NCBI GenBank assembly: GCA_050010355.1
Contig: JBEKLE010000007.1
Location: 3,976-67,975, forward strand
DNA: 64,000 nt
Reading direction: 5' to 3'
DNA from: Rhodopila sp.
GTDB lineage: Bacteria > Pseudomonadota > Alphaproteobacteria > Acetobacterales > Acetobacteraceae
The notes beneath the pieces were generated by a model. That model ran no database searches. It saw nothing but the letters and a program-made list of their open reading frames with translations, and was not told the origin of the DNA. Made by a program: the position numbers and the translations under genes. The stretch's first letter is position 1; the number at the start of each line of letters is the position of its first letter. Positions 1,761-49,402 of this stretch are shown in pieces.

Positions 1761-1955
1761 GATCGTCGAAAGTGAGCAGTTGGTCCAAGGCTTAACCTAC
1801 CAGGAAACCAGACTGCCGACAACTGTTGGCGTCAAACCTTGTGTTCCTGGCTCTGAAAGCGCTATGCAGTTTCGGCAATCGGTAAGCAGAACAAAAGCGT
1901 CCGAGAATTGCTGCCCTGGCATGTGACCGAAACGGCAGCCTCCCACCGTATACGC

Positions 1956-2825
1956 CTACCTCCCAAACAGGAGCGTCAAGGTAAGTTGAGCGGCCCAGAC
2001 GGACCCGTTGTCTCCCGGCCGCACGATGTTGTAGTACCCTTCTGCTTTGATCGTCATCGCCTGTGTGCCGATTTTGAATGCCTTGCCGATCCCGCCTCCG
2101 ACGGGCACAGTCCAGCGTTTGTCGTTTGTCGACGCCCAGTTGGCCGTGATGTTGGGGGAGGAGCTCACGGACCAACCGTCTCCAAAACGGTAGGCGACAA
2201 TTGGGTTAAGCATCAGGCTATTACTCCTGTTGCTCCCATCGGGAGGTTCGCTTAAACTCCAAACATTGTTCGTAACGAACCCGAAGGTCCACGGGATGCT
2301 GCCCTGCCACGTGAACGCGACGGAGGGACCCAAGCCCCACCTGTTCTGACCCGTTGCGGCGTTGGTTGCCGTCGGGAAAGAAATCACCGGCCCAGCCCCC
2401 CAGAAGAACTTGTCACCCCAGGCCGGCGACAGGAACAGCGTCGTTTGCAAATTGTTGAGACCGTCTTCCCAGGAATCGCCTGGCTTCTTCGGCGCCTGTG
2501 TAATAAAGGCCTCCTTGCTTCGGGCGATGAGGAACCAGTCGTCGTTCAGCGAGATCGGGACCACGGCATTGCTAAGTTCCAAAGTGTTTGTTGTGGCGTC
2601 GTAGTAGCCGTCCTCAAACGACGCTTTGTATCGAAGCGGCAGCGTGTAGAATCGTGTCACTGGATTTTCCGATTCCTTTTCGTACTCCTCGTTGGTCTCG
2701 TCGGCAGCCGACTGTGCGCTTGCTCGCGTGACCCACAGCAAGAGCGCGAGACCAATCAGCCTGGTGGCGATTCGGCGTGAGGATGGCAAAGCCGAGTTGC
2801 CAGGTTCTCGGGATCTACATAACAT
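1956..2825 (-). CDS. Putative outer-membrane beta-barrel protein (family often mis-annotated as neuromedin U)
   Basis: Signal peptide ending ASA, ENPV motif, WGAGP/WGLGP repeats, alternating aromatic strands; paralogous to 5981-6850. Confidence 0.7.
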   Translation of the reverse strand: MLCRSREPGNSALPSSRRIATRLIGLALLLWVTRASAQSAADETNEEYEKESENPVTRFYTLPLRYKASFEDGYYDATTNTLELSNAVVPISLNDDWFLIARSKEAFITQAPKKPGDSWEDGLNNLQTTLFLSPAWGDKFFWGAGPVISFPTATNAATGQNRWGLGPSVAFTWQGSIPWTFGFVTNNVWSLSEPPDGSNRSNSLMLNPIVAYRFGDGWSVSSSPNITANWASTNDKRWTVPVGGGIGKAFKIGTQAMTIKAEGYYNIVRPGDNGSVWAAQLTLTLLFGR

Positions 2826-3090: not shown

Positions 3091-3429
3091 TCACGTTCCT
3101 TCGTCCGCTCCGGCCAAATCGCGCTCGAGGAAGAAGTTTAGAAACGTCCGGATAACCGCGATTGCGGCCAACCGTTCGATATCCGTCCAACCTGGAGCGA
3201 TCGCGGTTTCGATGATGTCCGCTGCTAGCTGAAACGTCAGGCCGGCAACCAGCCAGCGCGCGTAACGCGCCCAAATACCACGAAACGGCTGGTCCGGAGC
3301 CAACGGAGATAGCATCGCCCGGAGCCCGCGAACGAATGCCTCGCACGACCCAAAGGTTATGACCACCAGCGCCATTGATTCAATGACGGCGATTGCGATT
3401 CGTGTTATGATATCGAACCAATATTCCAT
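3091..3429 (-). CDS. DUF1622 domain membrane protein
   Basis: GLTFQLAADIIETAIAPGWTDIERLAAIAVIRTFLNFFLERD signature. Confidence 0.9.
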   Translation of the reverse strand: MEYWFDIITRIAIAVIESMALVVITFGSCEAFVRGLRAMLSPLAPDQPFRGIWARYARWLVAGLTFQLAADIIETAIAPGWTDIERLAAIAVIRTFLNFFLERDLAGADEGT

Positions 3430-3454
3430 AGAACCCCTTCATTCGACGGCGTTG

Positions 3455-3922
3455 TCATTCCTTAAACGTCACGGCAATCAGCCCCATGAGTCCGAGGAGC
3501 GCTACAAAGCCTCCCACGACCACGGCCAATGAGGGTGGTGCCTCGATGCCCGCCGCCCTCAGGCTTCGCAGATCCCGAACATGCTGCGCGCCAGCGATAC
3601 CGACCACGCTGAGCCCGATAAGGATCATCGTAGCCCCAAAGCCCCGTGAACCGATGACCCCCTCCTGGAATGCGCCCTTGAGTCCGATCTCCCGGATCTG
3701 GAAGAACTTGTAAATGGAGAACCCGAACGAGATCAGCGATACCCCGGTCCGGAGCCAGGCCATCATCGTACGTTCGTACGCCAGCCGAGTGCGCTCCATG
3801 CTCAGGTAATTAGGGTCTGCGCGGCTCCACGTTCCCTGTTCCCCCAGGATGAGGTCAACACAGTACGAGATTGCCCGTTGCCACGGTTTGCCTTCTGAAG
3901 TGGGTCGCGGCGATTGGCTCAT
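3455..3922 (-). CDS. DUF202 (YidH-like) inner membrane protein, second copy
   Basis: LSMERTRLAYERTMMAWLRTGVSLISFGFSIYKFF; start placed at MSQSP. Confidence 0.85.
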   Translation of the reverse strand: MSQSPRPTSEGKPWQRAISYCVDLILGEQGTWSRADPNYLSMERTRLAYERTMMAWLRTGVSLISFGFSIYKFFQIREIGLKGAFQEGVIGSRGFGATMILIGLSVVGIAGAQHVRDLRSLRAAGIEAPPSLAVVVGGFVALLGLMGLIAVTFKE

Positions 3923-4059
3923 CGGATTGCACTCCAATGTTCGAAGCGGATAAGCCGGGGAATCGCGCATGACACAGCGGCGGTCGTGAACGTTTTCCAT
4001 AAGAATGTCTGTTCGAACCTTCAGCGGATTGAGATGTCGAATGCTGCTCGGAGCGGAGG

Positions 4060-46657: not shown

Positions 46658-46822
46658 ATGCCGATTCCACCCAGCACGCCGCCCGAAACGCCGCCGCCCG
46701 CCCCGCCGCCGGAACAGGCTCCGGGCGGTCCGCCGGAGGACCCGATCCCGTCACCCGGCATTCCGCCTGACCAGACCCCGCCAAACGCGCCGCCGGGGCC
46801 AATCGTCGCCGCCAGTCAGTAG
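46658..46822 (+). CDS. Small proline-rich protein (54 aa)
   Basis: GAGGA RBS, MPIPPSTPPETPPPAPPPEQAPGGPPEDPIPSPGIPPDQTPPNAPPGPIVAASQ. Confidence 0.5.
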   Translation: MPIPPSTPPETPPPAPPPEQAPGGPPEDPIPSPGIPPDQTPPNAPPGPIVAASQ

Positions 46823-47692
46823 CCCGCGGCTCGGTCCACGACCGCCGTCAACGGATCGCCGTTCAGGAACCGTCGGAGGTTCTCGACGAACAGTTTGGCG
46901 ACGATGCTGTCGCGCTGCGGGTGCGGGCCGCCGATATGCGGCAGCACGAGAATGCCCTCGGTGGTCCAGAACCGGTGTTCCTTCGGCAGCGGTTCCTGGC
47001 GGAACACGTCCAGAACCGCGCCGGCAATCGTCCCGGCCTGCACCGCCGAGATCAGGTCATCATCCTTGACCAGATGACCGCGCCCGAAATTCAGCAGCCA
47101 CGCCCCCGCCTTCATCTGCCCCAGCCGCTCGGCATTGATGAAATTGTCGGTCTCCGGCGTGGCGGGCAGCAGCAGCACGACGAAATCGGATTGCCCCAGA
47201 ACCTCGGCGGTTCGTTCGGTCGGAAAGACCTCCGCCAGCCCCGGCATCGCCGTGGGACGGCGTTTGGTTCCGATCACCCGCATGCCCAGGGCCGAACCAA
47301 GGCGTGCGAGTTCCTGGCCGATGGCGCCCAGGCCGAGAATGCCAAGCGTCGTACCGTTGAGCGGCGTGGCGATGCGGTTGCGCCACAGACTTTGCTTCTG
47401 GTCCTCGGCAATCGCGGCGTAAGGCTTGGTGATGTGGAACAGCGCGCCGAGGATGTTTTCCGGCATAGACTCCCGGTGCGTGCCGCGCGCGCTGGTCAGG
47501 GTCAGGCCGTCCGGAAGGTCGGGCAAAGCGAGCCAGCCCTCGACCCCCGCCGTGAGAGCCTGGGCCCAACGCAGGTTCGGCATGGCCGGCAACAACCCGG
47601 GCGGAACGCCGATCGCGAGCAGCTGCGGAAATGGCGTCGATGTAGGGTTCCGGGGTGTCGGTCCAGAGCAGCAGGCGGGGGATGTTGCGCAT
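46816..47692 (-). pseudogene. D-2-hydroxyacid dehydrogenase with an N-terminal frameshifting deletion
   Basis: MRNIPRLLLWTDTPEPYIDAISAA shifts at ~47620 to LLAIGVPPGLL...; GILGLGAIG, LLNFGRG, LDVFRQEPLP, LPHIGG. Confidence 0.85.
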
Positions 47693-47860
47693 AATGTGGC
47701 TCCTGAGCAGGCATCCCAGTTTAGGACGACAGGAGCAGGGCGCCTATCCGCGGCCGGCATGATGCACAGCAAATCCGCGCATCATGCCGGACCGTTCAGG
47801 CCGCGACCGGGTGAGAGCACCTTTCGCCGGGTTCAGCCTCGGATGGGCCATCGAAGCGGA

Positions 47861-48520
47861 TCATGGATTGCTCTTCGGTAGATTTCGCAGGACCTCGACC
47901 GTCGGTTCCACTTCCGGCCGATGCGTGTAGTCCGGATCGGCTTCAACCGCGGCGACAATCCCGTCGCGGCGAATGACAAGCCTGGCCGGTATCGAAAGCC
48001 GCCAGCTTTCGTCACCGTTGAAACGAGGCAGATCGACACCGAGCTTCTTGTAGACCTCGATCAGATCGTCGGGCAGGCGAAACGCCAGGCCGTAGGCCTC
48101 GCCCACCTGGTTGTCATGATCCGTGAGGATCAGGAAGCCCAGCTTCTGCGCTTTGGTCCCTGGCTTGGTGAATTGCTGCAATTGTGGGCAAAGCACGACC
48201 AGGCTGGCTCCGAGGGATTCGATCTGGGGCAGTACTGCTTGCAAAGCATCCAGCTCATGCCGGCAGTACGGTCACCAGAATCCTCGGAAGATGCTGACGA
48301 CGACCGGCCCGGCCGTAAGCAGCGCCGACAGCACGACCATCTGGCCGTTCTGGTCGTTCAGTGAAAAGTCCGGAGCTTGCGCGCCCGGTTTGATCACCCG
48401 TTCGAGGATGCCGGAGCCGCGCAGCCGTTCGGTCGCACTGTGCATGATCGCTTGCGCTTCAGGCGGGATGCGTTTCGCCGAAGCTTCCCGCGTTGCCGCC
48501 AGTTTCGCTTCCAGGGTCAT
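47861..48520 (-). CDS. Peroxiredoxin-like (AhpC/TSA, thioredoxin-fold) protein with an in-frame TGA; candidate selenoprotein (Sec83, UxxC)
   Basis: ORFs 48272-48520 and 47861-48244 are one reading frame: ...FRGFW-TGA-PYCRHELDALQ..., corresponding to the family WCPYC motif; APDFSL before and PARLVI..DG after. Confidence 0.8.
48232..48269 (-). promoter_or_regulatory. Candidate bacterial SECIS element
   Basis: GTACTGC (+3..+9 after UGA) pairs with GCAGTAC (+34..+40); upper stem GGCAT/ATGCT; apical loop GAGCTGG starting at +16. Confidence 0.6.
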
Positions 48521-48620
48521 GACAAGAGGGTCTCAAATCCAGTTGTTCAAGCGCTATGTGGCCATTGCGAGGCGTGCATGGCATCATGTGCGCCGCCGAG
48601 CTCCCAGGCTCGTTCGGCAT

Positions 48621-48983
48621 TCATCCTGCCGGTCCACCATCGTCCGAAACCAGACGCGCCAAACATGCGATCAGTGGATCGAGGTGCTCCTGCACCACAA
48701 ACCACACCAGATCGAGCTGGACGTCGGCATAACCATGGATCAGCCGGTGGCGCATTCCTGTGATCTGGCGCCAGGGTATGTCTGGGTACGCGGCCTGCGT
48801 GGTCGCCGACACTTTGCCCGCGGCCTCCCCAATCACTTCTAGCGATCGGATCACAGCGTTCTGGTGCAGACGGCTCGCCAGGAACTCGGCCTCGTCCATC
48901 CCGGCCACAAAGCCGCGCCCATCTCGGGCCGCCAGCAGCATGTCCAACAGAAGCGGCGTATCCCGGTCTGGCCCGTCAACCAT
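48621..48983 (-). CDS. HepT-like HEPN ribonuclease toxin (DUF86)
   Basis: LLDMLLAA, AVIRSLEVIGEAA, IPWRQITGMRHRLIHGY (Rx4H), DLVW. Confidence 0.9.
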   Translation of the reverse strand: MVDGPDRDTPLLLDMLLAARDGRGFVAGMDEAEFLASRLHQNAVIRSLEVIGEAAGKVSATTQAAYPDIPWRQITGMRHRLIHGYADVQLDLVWFVVQEHLDPLIACLARLVSDDGGPAG

Positions 48984-49290
48984 AGACCGGTTCAGCCTCG
49001 GCCAGGATGCGGCGGCGACGAATGAAATTCCGGCTTGCCTCGACCGCCCCGCGCTCCACCAGATCGACTTGCCGGCCCAGAAGTGCCTCCAGCGCATCCT
49101 TGAAATCGGCGAACCCGGCAAAATCGTTGCGCGCCTCCGGAGCGAACGTGACAAGAAAATCGGCGTCGCTCCGGTCTGGATCGAAATCGGCCGCCCTGGC
49201 GGCGGAGCCGAACACCTCCAACTGCCGCACGCCATAGCGGTCGCAAAGCAGGGCAATCTCCGCGCGGTGATGGTCGATCAGCGTGTGCAT
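48976..49290 (-). CDS. Minimal nucleotidyltransferase (MNT) antitoxin
   Basis: LEVFGSAAR..FDPDRSDADFLV (GS..DxD), LEALLGRQVDLV; overlaps the HEPN gene start. Confidence 0.9.
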   Translation of the reverse strand: MHTLIDHHRAEIALLCDRYGVRQLEVFGSAARAADFDPDRSDADFLVTFAPEARNDFAGFADFKDALEALLGRQVDLVERGAVEASRNFIRRRRILAEAEPVYG

Positions 49291-49402
49291 TACAGTCCCC
49301 AGGATGCTTACCACGATCCGCCCGTAACCGTGCAACTTAGACAGGCTCGACCGGAACCGCTATGGCAAGCTGACACGCCGTCGACCAAGGAGGAGCATCA
49401 GG

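Follow-up and report, generated by a model that had tools for sequence, protein, structure and literature searches.

The window analysed here, a stretch of 64,000 nucleotides from a contig of the Rhodopila sp. assembly GCA_050010355.1, carries on its minus strand a peroxiredoxin-like gene with an in-frame UGA codon that we predict to encode selenocysteine (Sec, U). From 48520 to 47864 runs a single frame of 219 codons, whose sole interruption is the TGA at 48272–48274 (codon 83, in the context ...VVVSIFRGFW-U-PYCRHELDAL...); translation table 11 cuts it into two open reading frames (ORFs), both in this frame, of 82 aa (48520..48272) and 127 aa (48244..47861). Re-translation agrees with the initial annotation, made from the letters of the window alone, that these two short ORFs are one frame broken by a single TGA, and apart from that codon the gene has no other stops or frameshifts. 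The start codon ATG (48518..48520) opens an N-terminus, MTLEAKLAATRE, that is kept in orthologs, which begin at the same M-[ST]-L-E. Their C-terminal ends also fall at about the same place: the gene ends in a TGA (47861..47863) that lacks the context of a selenocysteine insertion sequence (SECIS), and orthologs stop within a few codons of it at TAA, TAG or TGA. The predicted Sec, U83, is the first residue of a U-P-Y-C redox motif, and Cys86 (48263..48265), the second residue of the UxxC motif, is invariant in 64/64 sequences. The base after the UGA is C, as in all Sec forms of the gene, and a SECIS-like mRNA hairpin, delimited by fold energy and comparison of orthologs, occupies 48232..48269.

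The initial annotation had proposed looking for Sec machinery in the genome, and this was found. The source genome is an 8.1-Mb metagenome-assembled genome (MAG) in 832 contigs (93% complete, 4.8% contamination), of which the window represents contig C7. It encodes selA (C9, 548 bits, cut-off 268), selB (C93, 409 bits, cut-off 242), selD (C2, 287 bits, cut-off 125) and one tRNA-Sec(UCA) (C9:1140-1235, Rfam 76 bits, cut-off 47; ARAGORN calls the same gene), all above the curated cut-offs. In some Alphaproteobacteria the tRNA-Sec is reported to be nested inside selB (Mukai 2021, as cited in PMC9312934), whereas here it sits beside selA instead, 23 nt downstream of it (C9:1140-2587, minus strand), with selB on a separate contig. 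The genome also encodes a formate dehydrogenase alpha subunit, FdhA (C16:15938-18973, plus strand; TIGR01553, 1429 bits), in which a single TGA interrupts the frame (NQARV-U-HGPS), with a hairpin downstream of it; this is the "classical" selenoprotein to be expected in the source genome. Together, the three sel genes, the tRNA-Sec and the TGA of FdhA indicate that a recoding system is present, and already used, in the source organism. They also bear on the idea that TGA is a sense codon genome-wide, under an alternative genetic code, which would account for the open frame and for nothing more: the gene's own terminator is TGA, as it is in most homologs in the genus; selA, selB, selD and a Cys paralog of the gene are open without TGA read-through; and the lone TGA of FdhA stands at a known Sec position. 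We regard the chance of such a code as negligible.

The UGA recurs in relatives, at one specific codon. A six-frame search found the gene in 25/60 relative genomes. In each of the ten closest orthologs outside the source genome (49–86% identity) the matched stretch contains a single TGA, which on translation invariably falls between W and P-Y-C; matches to more distant paralogs and homologs contain no TGA. In a scan of public loci, with one genome per species (GTDB), codon 83 is TGA in 35/43 and TGC in 8/43; after de-duplication, a single alignment column holds 37 distinct Sec-form genes as against 27 Cys-form genes (24 TGC, 3 TGT). Carriers of the Sec form include many Rhodopila and Acetobacteraceae MAGs, Reyranella MAGs, the cultured strain Enhydrobacter aerosaccus ATCC 27094, a MAG labelled Hyphomicrobiales and one MAG of Planctomycetota. 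Two further orthologs, from MFD long-read MAGs (L071 and L087), were left out of the analyses for in-gene frameshifts besides the TGA, probably indel errors of long-read sequencing. The site is also spanned with zero differences, TGA included, by Logan contigs of two further metagenome runs, X1 (peat) and X3 (a different study). The initial annotation had raised two possibilities that would have told against it, a TGA unique to this assembly, with close orthologs all Cys, and a TGC in raw reads; the first is answered by the public loci and the ten relatives, with TGC or TGT confined to distant homologs, and the second by the identical TGA in both runs. A peat metatranscriptome run contributed a weak transcript trace, a 67-nt piece across the UGA and SECIS region that apparently comes from a relative; the metatranscriptome sharing the most sampled words with the gene yielded no such piece. 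As a separate observation, the contig of run X3, in which the gene itself is identical, carries a 28-nt insertion (CGGAAGGGTTGAAGTCCACCGTTGTGAA, plus strand) at 48526/48527, 6 nt upstream of the start codon, which indicates population variation in the 5' leader.

A rival explanation treats the TGA as a lesion: either the gene is decaying and has acquired a nonsense mutation, or the fragmented MAG has a sequencing or assembly error at this point. The same assembly does contain damaged genes, among them a frameshifted 2-hydroxyacid dehydrogenase directly downstream and, on contig C433, a ferredoxin-domain gene with a TGA where all relatives read Cys. The latter emerged from a scan of the genome for Sec/Cys paralogs, in which 10,741 TGA candidates compared with 76,520 ORFs left, after filtering, only the selenoprotein gene, FdhA and the C433 gene; such a scan detects only selenoproteins with a Cys paralog in the same genome and so sets no bound on the selenoproteome. 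The C433 gene (813-1109, minus strand) encodes a plant-type [2Fe-2S] ferredoxin domain (..DCRPGACGT-TGA-KCH..) with the TGA (966-968) at the third cluster-ligand Cys. We rejected it as a selenoprotein: the TGA is private to the assembly, the gene is truncated and has no good hairpin, and 6/6 homologous matches, of which five come from relatives and one is a paralog from the source genome, read Cys within longer ORFs (195-473 aa). It is a private nonsense lesion or a pseudogene, and serves as a negative control for a private TGA. A de novo scan by redox motif and G+C content at third codon positions gave 452 matches, nearly all off-frame noise, and was abandoned, the target gene itself having failed the composition filter.

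The selenoprotein gene does not resemble the C433 gene. Its TGA recurs at the same codon in the 37 distinct sequences, which come from independent assemblies and include a cultured strain; a shared assembly artefact is implausible across Illumina MAGs, long-read MAGs and an isolate genome. Recurrence in independent assemblies and in the two metagenome runs excludes a private nonsense mutation or sequencing error. Moreover, the intact frame is under equal constraint on both sides of the UGA, a point on which the initial annotation had asked for evidence of purifying selection: the median ratio of nonsynonymous to synonymous substitution rates (dN/dS, NG86 method) relative to the window gene is 0.23 over the 82 codons before the UGA and 0.22 over the ~117 codons after the hairpin, and among closer relatives it is 0.07-0.30 in both halves. 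That the TGA is a lesion thus appears very improbable, if slightly less so than a change of genetic code.

The hairpin lies where a bacterial SECIS element would be expected. The 66-nt stretch around and after the UGA folds with -27.3 kcal/mol, as against -16.7 +/- 2.6 kcal/mol in 200 dinucleotide shuffles (z = -4.1, 0/200 as good). It begins 5 nt after the UGA with a 7-bp lower stem, GUACUGC/GCAGUAC (48269-48263 / 48238-48232), as the initial annotation had described; above this is an upper stem GCA(U-bulge)GAGC / GCUUUGC, in which 48260-48258 and 48256-48253 pair with 48247-48241 and U48257 is bulged, closed by the apical loop UGGAU (48252-48248). The apical stem-loop begins 15-19 nt downstream of the UGA, the loop itself at 19 nt, inside the 16-37 nt between UGA and apical loop of the bacterial SECIS model used by bSECISearch. 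The initial annotation had drawn the upper part in another register, with a stem GGCAU/AUGCU and a loop GAGCUGG starting 16 nt after the codon; this fold is possible in the window sequence, but it is paired in 80% of cells as against 100% for GAGC/GCUY and differs from the minimum-energy fold, and we rejected it as the conserved register. Like the SECIS of E. coli fdhF, the element stands a few nucleotides after the UGA, with a bulged U in the upper stem and a G (often GU) in the apical loop; unlike it, this predicted element has an unrelated primary sequence, and some orthologs lack the bulge, having instead a continuous 7-bp upper stem, UCAGAGC/GCUCUGA.

We compared the hairpin across 36 distinct orthologous sequences (alignment A1, to which the pair and column numbers given here refer). 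The apical stem GAGC/GCUY (48256-48253 / 48247-48244) is paired in 36/36, the loop reads UGGAU or UGUAU, its G at column 27 never varying, and the lower stem is retained in most sequences, with a compensatory change from C-G to U-A at pair 12-43 in eight sequences of the Reyranella group. RNAalifold recovers from the same alignment the 4-bp apical stem alone, with zero compensatory pairs. An invariant apical stem makes classic covariation weak, and the decisive evidence comes instead from synonymous sites, at which Sec forms contrast with Cys forms. In Sec forms the codon choice within the hairpin is fixed (0 bits) at His88 (CAT, 31/31), Glu89 (GAG, 37/37), Leu90 (CTG, 35/35) and Ala92 (GCT, 37/37), while flanking codons vary at 1.2-1.8 bits; in the 27 Cys forms the codon entropy at hairpin positions is 1.88 bits for Leu and 1.67 bits for Ala, the Ala codon being GCG, GCC or GCA, with GCT, otherwise rare, in one distinct sequence. 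The motif GAGC-N5-GCTY occurs in 37/37 Sec forms but in 0/27 Cys forms. Mean folding energy over the 45 nt after the codon is -15.8 kcal/mol in Sec forms and -10.7 kcal/mol in Cys forms (p = 1.5e-4, phylogeny not corrected). These comparisons of sequence strongly support conservation of the hairpin at the RNA level, beyond protein constraint.

Read through the UGA, the protein has the fold that the initial annotation had assigned to it, an AhpC/TSA-like thioredoxin fold: it matches PF00578 (AhpC-TSA) with 72.6 bits (gathering cut-off 26; E 3.7e-20) over profile positions 1-123/124, and PF08534 (Redoxin) with 64.3 bits. An AlphaFold2 model from a 45-sequence alignment (predicted local distance difference test, pLDDT, 96.4; predicted template modelling score, pTM, 0.92) has two N-terminal helices, 3-17 and 20-35, forming an extension of ~40 aa, followed by the thioredoxin/peroxiredoxin fold. 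Residue 83 comes after strand 73-77 and immediately precedes helix 84-102, so a cut there would bisect the fold at its active site. No signal peptide is evident by eye. The top Foldseek matches are Bcp/PrxQ, AhpE and ResA (template modelling score 0.85-0.90 on the target), and the best sequence matches in the PDB are the Geobacter "thioredoxin family proteins" 3kcm and 3hdc (E about 3e-10), then ResA.

The two kinds of homolog place U83 differently. In 3kcm, 3hdc and ResA, W-C-P-x-C aligns with W-U-P-Y-C, which indicates that Sec replaces the first, nucleophilic Cys of a CxxC motif. Against Mycobacterium tuberculosis AhpE (PDB 4x1u/1xvw), by contrast, FFPLAF-T-GI-C-QGELD aligns with IFRGFW-U-PY-C-RHELD: U83 stands opposite Thr and C86 opposite the peroxidatic Cys, so that the Thr or Ser that typical peroxiredoxins have three residues before the peroxidatic Cys is replaced by U83. 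The initial annotation had put the UGA at "the catalytic Cys", which is right if the protein is a CxxC thiol-disulfide oxidoreductase but wrong for a true peroxiredoxin. W82, P84 and C86 are invariant in the 64 sequences, and R180, in a P-A-R-x-V-I motif, is invariant in 37/37 Sec forms and present in 10/27 Cys forms. From motif spacing in peroxiredoxin sequences R180 would correspond to their catalytic Arg; compared with ResA, it presumably stands at the place of the cis-Pro. The enzyme is CxxC-like in its motif and peroxiredoxin-like in its scaffold, and its substrate could be a peroxide or a disulfide or sulfenate.

The UGA might also be conserved and functional without encoding Sec, either as a programmed stop yielding an 82-aa peptide and a re-initiated protein of 122-127 aa, or as a site of hairpin-stimulated near-cognate read-through with Trp or Cys. 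Gene callers do give the C-terminal ORF its own start in all relatives (about 90 clusters of 122 aa), UGA-C is the leakiest bacterial stop context, and the case for Sec is comparative throughout. A split at this position, however, would sever the thioredoxin fold in the middle of the active-site motif, parting strand 73-77 from helix 84-102; in homologs the aligned residue is specifically Cys, making a classic Sec/Cys pair; the distance of the hairpin falls inside the bacterial SECIS range, with the loop G invariant; and among the genomes tested the Sec form occurs only alongside selA or selB. Specifically, all Sec-form relatives have selA matches (that of one, G035, in two pieces just below the cut-off), two relatives without selA (G016 and G017) carry Cys forms only, and four more distant Sec-form carriers that were tested all have selB, among them E. 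aerosaccus ATCC 27094 (locus L076), in which the site reads FFRGSW-U-PYC. We therefore hold a conserved UGA with a function other than Sec insertion to be improbable, though the most credible of the alternatives considered so far.

The two forms also separate in a phylogeny. In a maximum-likelihood tree of 64 proteins the Sec forms make up one clade (90/88 by ultrafast bootstrap and SH-aLRT) nested among Cys forms; one change suffices to explain the Sec and Cys labels, and 0/500 label shuffles are as clustered. Its sister group is a clade of Cys forms, among them sequences from Rhodopila, Rhizobium, Mesorhizobium and Sphingomonas. On this tree the simplest reading is a single conversion from Cys to Sec followed by retention, and the Planctomycetota member suggests transfer. 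The Cys paralog in the source genome (C17:18993-19616, plus strand; WCPFC, 36% identity) belongs to a different and more distant clade. In one Reyranella MAG (L072) the Sec-form gene (1793-2440, plus strand) converges with a highly divergent homolog of the Cys form (3322-3990, minus strand) that is ~900 nt away.

Several points weigh against decoding as Sec. Firstly, the entire case for Sec incorporation is comparative, across all members of the clade. Secondly, the Sec machinery is on other contigs of a fragmented MAG (832 contigs, about 5% estimated contamination), and this assembly holds genuinely broken genes, namely the neighbouring dehydrogenase and the C433 gene. Thirdly, the hairpin has its own weaknesses: the invariant apical stem offers no compensatory changes, covariation is limited to the one lower-stem pair (eight sequences, probably one event), pairing at the outer positions 9-46 and 15-40 is often lost among the 36 sequences, the stem overlaps the conserved residues E-L-x-A-L so that part of its conservation is protein-driven, and a search of the entire window with Rfam at gathering thresholds gave no match, placing the hairpin in no described RNA family. 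Lastly, no curated NCBIfam selenoprotein model reaches its cut-off, and no conserved operon partner points to a substrate. Weighing all of this, we consider it very likely that UGA codon 83 is decoded as Sec within one 219-aa cytoplasmic thioredoxin-fold "peroxiredoxin-like" redox enzyme. The initial annotation had arrived at the same proposal, a 219-aa UxxC selenoprotein that standard annotation splits; the evidence supports it, and none of the tests that it laid out as able to refute it has done so.

How would such a protein be made and act? By the established bacterial mechanism, SelB-GTP carrying Sec-tRNA(Sec) would bind the apical part of the hairpin as the ribosome reaches UGA-C, and Sec would be delivered in competition with release factor 2 (RF2). 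Going by the fold, U83 at the N-terminus of helix 84-102 would take the nucleophilic first-Cys position of a CxxC motif and would form a selenenylsulfide with C86 during turnover, which a cellular thiol system would re-reduce. The Sec form probably arose once from a Cys ancestor in a family of the PRX_like2 type, cd02970, and it persists in Rhodopila and other Acetobacteraceae, in Reyranella and Enhydrobacter and in a few others.

Published surveys define selenoprotein subfamilies by domain and Sec motif (PMC9312934), and by these the gene fits a known kind. The Prx (peroxiredoxin)-like thiol:disulfide oxidoreductase selenoproteins (pfam00578, UxxC/UxxU) are an established, predicted family (PMC9312934, PMC2398784, PMC13188914), traced in those papers to Kryukov & Gladyshev 2004, with WP_010940744.1 of Geobacter sulfurreducens cited as type member; a Global Ocean Sampling (GOS) survey counted 225 "Prx-like 1" sequences (pfam00578, UxxC) (PMC2398784). 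The window gene resembles this family in scoring above the PF00578 gathering threshold, in a UxxC motif with Sec first and a SECIS directly downstream, in having a predicted function, and in that Cys homologs far outnumber Sec forms. It differs in that the Rhodopila-type clade has the ~40-aa N-terminal helical extension, sits in the NCBI "peroxiredoxin-like family protein" group and is hosted by aerobic soil and peat Alphaproteobacteria rather than by Deltaproteobacteria or marine plankton; the gene is grouped with the Geobacter and marine members by domain and motif. A selenoprotein from the Olavius symbiont metagenome, listed as a cd02970 "peroxiredoxin-like family protein" with UxxS beside a PF08534 "redoxin family protein" with UxxC (PMC13188914), apparently belongs to the same conserved-domain family, to go by the NCBI names of Cys homologs, and also has Sec first in its motif, though the motif here is UxxC. 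The full-length Cys homologs P0058 and P0097 (43-48% identity; motif WCPYC) bear that NCBI name.

Other thioredoxin-fold families were compared as well. Prx/PrxU selenoproteins (TxxU) share the AhpC/TSA fold, and the nearest structures are Bcp/PrxQ and AhpE, but their Sec replaces the peroxidatic Cys, whereas here Sec replaces the Thr three residues earlier and Cys86 holds the peroxidatic position. Curated peroxiredoxin equivalogs are not matched (Bcp NF006960, 32.4 bits versus a cut-off of 140; PrxU NF040737, 15.8 versus 270), and the NCBIfam thioredoxin-fold selenoprotein models fall equally short (SelL-related NF040769, 29.5/120; WAxxUGC NF041054, 15.6/300; deiodinase-related NF038285, 18.5/250). 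ResA/TlpA-type proteins and the Geobacter proteins 3kcm and 3hdc share the aligned motif, but all of these are Cys proteins, mostly extracytoplasmic, unlike this selenoprotein, in which no signal peptide is discernible by eye.

The initial annotation had called such a gene unusual for an alphaproteobacterium, on the ground that selenoproteins there are mostly formate dehydrogenases. This agrees with a 2006 survey, in which FdhA was the only selenoprotein family in Alphaproteobacteria (PMC1794560), but the UxxC Prx-like family is established and a 2016 supplementary table gives a count of 10 selenoproteins for the alphaproteobacterium Reyranella massiliensis (PMC5029168), so the surprise is modest. 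Our literature search found no paper linking Rhodopila to selenocysteine and none describing the Reyranella selenoproteins.

A bolder interpretation treats the clade as a subfamily of its own, so far uncurated, whose hybrid active site has Sec in place of the peroxiredoxin Thr and keeps both C86, at the peroxidatic position, and R180, which is invariant only in the Sec forms and the sister clade. Such an enzyme would be a selenium-dependent peroxidase or sulfenate reductase with a mechanism unlike those of TxxU peroxiredoxins and CxxC disulfide reductases, of single origin among aerobic soil Alphaproteobacteria, from which at least one planctomycete would have acquired it. We put this forward tentatively and think it rather unlikely as a whole, but if it were true, then together with the 10 selenoproteins reported for Reyranella it would point to overlooked selenium-using lineages among aerobes.

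Whatever the chemistry, public annotation truncates the gene throughout this clade of soil and peat Alphaproteobacteria, and the active site is lost. When 5.8 billion predicted proteins were searched, the most similar entries (54-100% identity) formed about 100 clusters of roughly 121-147 aa. Nearly all of them are C-terminal fragments, typically starting MQAVLP... and named "hypothetical protein" or "peroxiredoxin"; this search returned no full-length Sec form, every full-length match being a Cys form of at most 50% identity. NCBIfam has no model that would rescue the gene. Its main value lies in this correction and in a tractable natural experiment on Sec and Cys, rather than in a new kind of system: it would be a second selenoprotein beside FdhA in a lineage whose use of Sec was long believed to be confined to formate dehydrogenase. 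Comparing the Sec clade with its Cys sister offers a clean natural contrast from which to learn the advantage of selenium in a CxxC/Prx-type active site of aerobes, a question that the cultured carrier E. aerosaccus ATCC 27094 makes directly testable.

The neighbourhood of the gene varies among carriers. When flanking ORFs from 30+ loci were clustered, about 10 loci proved to have a TetR-like regulator and about 7 a glutathione S-transferase (GST)-like gene, with none universal. The TetR-like gene (e.g. L073:1197-1865, in loci of the Reyranella group) is upstream and on the same strand in 9 of about 10, and the GST-like gene adjoins the Sec-form gene (e.g. L063:2274-2978); both are possible hints to regulation or reductant. 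In the window, the region immediately upstream (48621-49335, minus strand) encodes a toxin-antitoxin pair, a HepT-like ribonuclease (PF01934, 84 bits) and an MntA-type nucleotidyltransferase (PF01909), which is shared with only one close relative (L056); HpaB and CobW genes lie further upstream. Downstream is the D-2-hydroxyacid dehydrogenase (PF02826, 168 bits), which only a few close Rhodopila share and which is split here between two frames, 46816-47772 (minus strand) and an overlapping ORF at 47060-47692. A plausible N-terminus, MRNIPRLLLWTDTPEPYIDAI..., lies in one ORF and the NAD-binding domain in the other, pointing to a frameshift around 47600-47700 that reflects either misassembly or decay of the gene.

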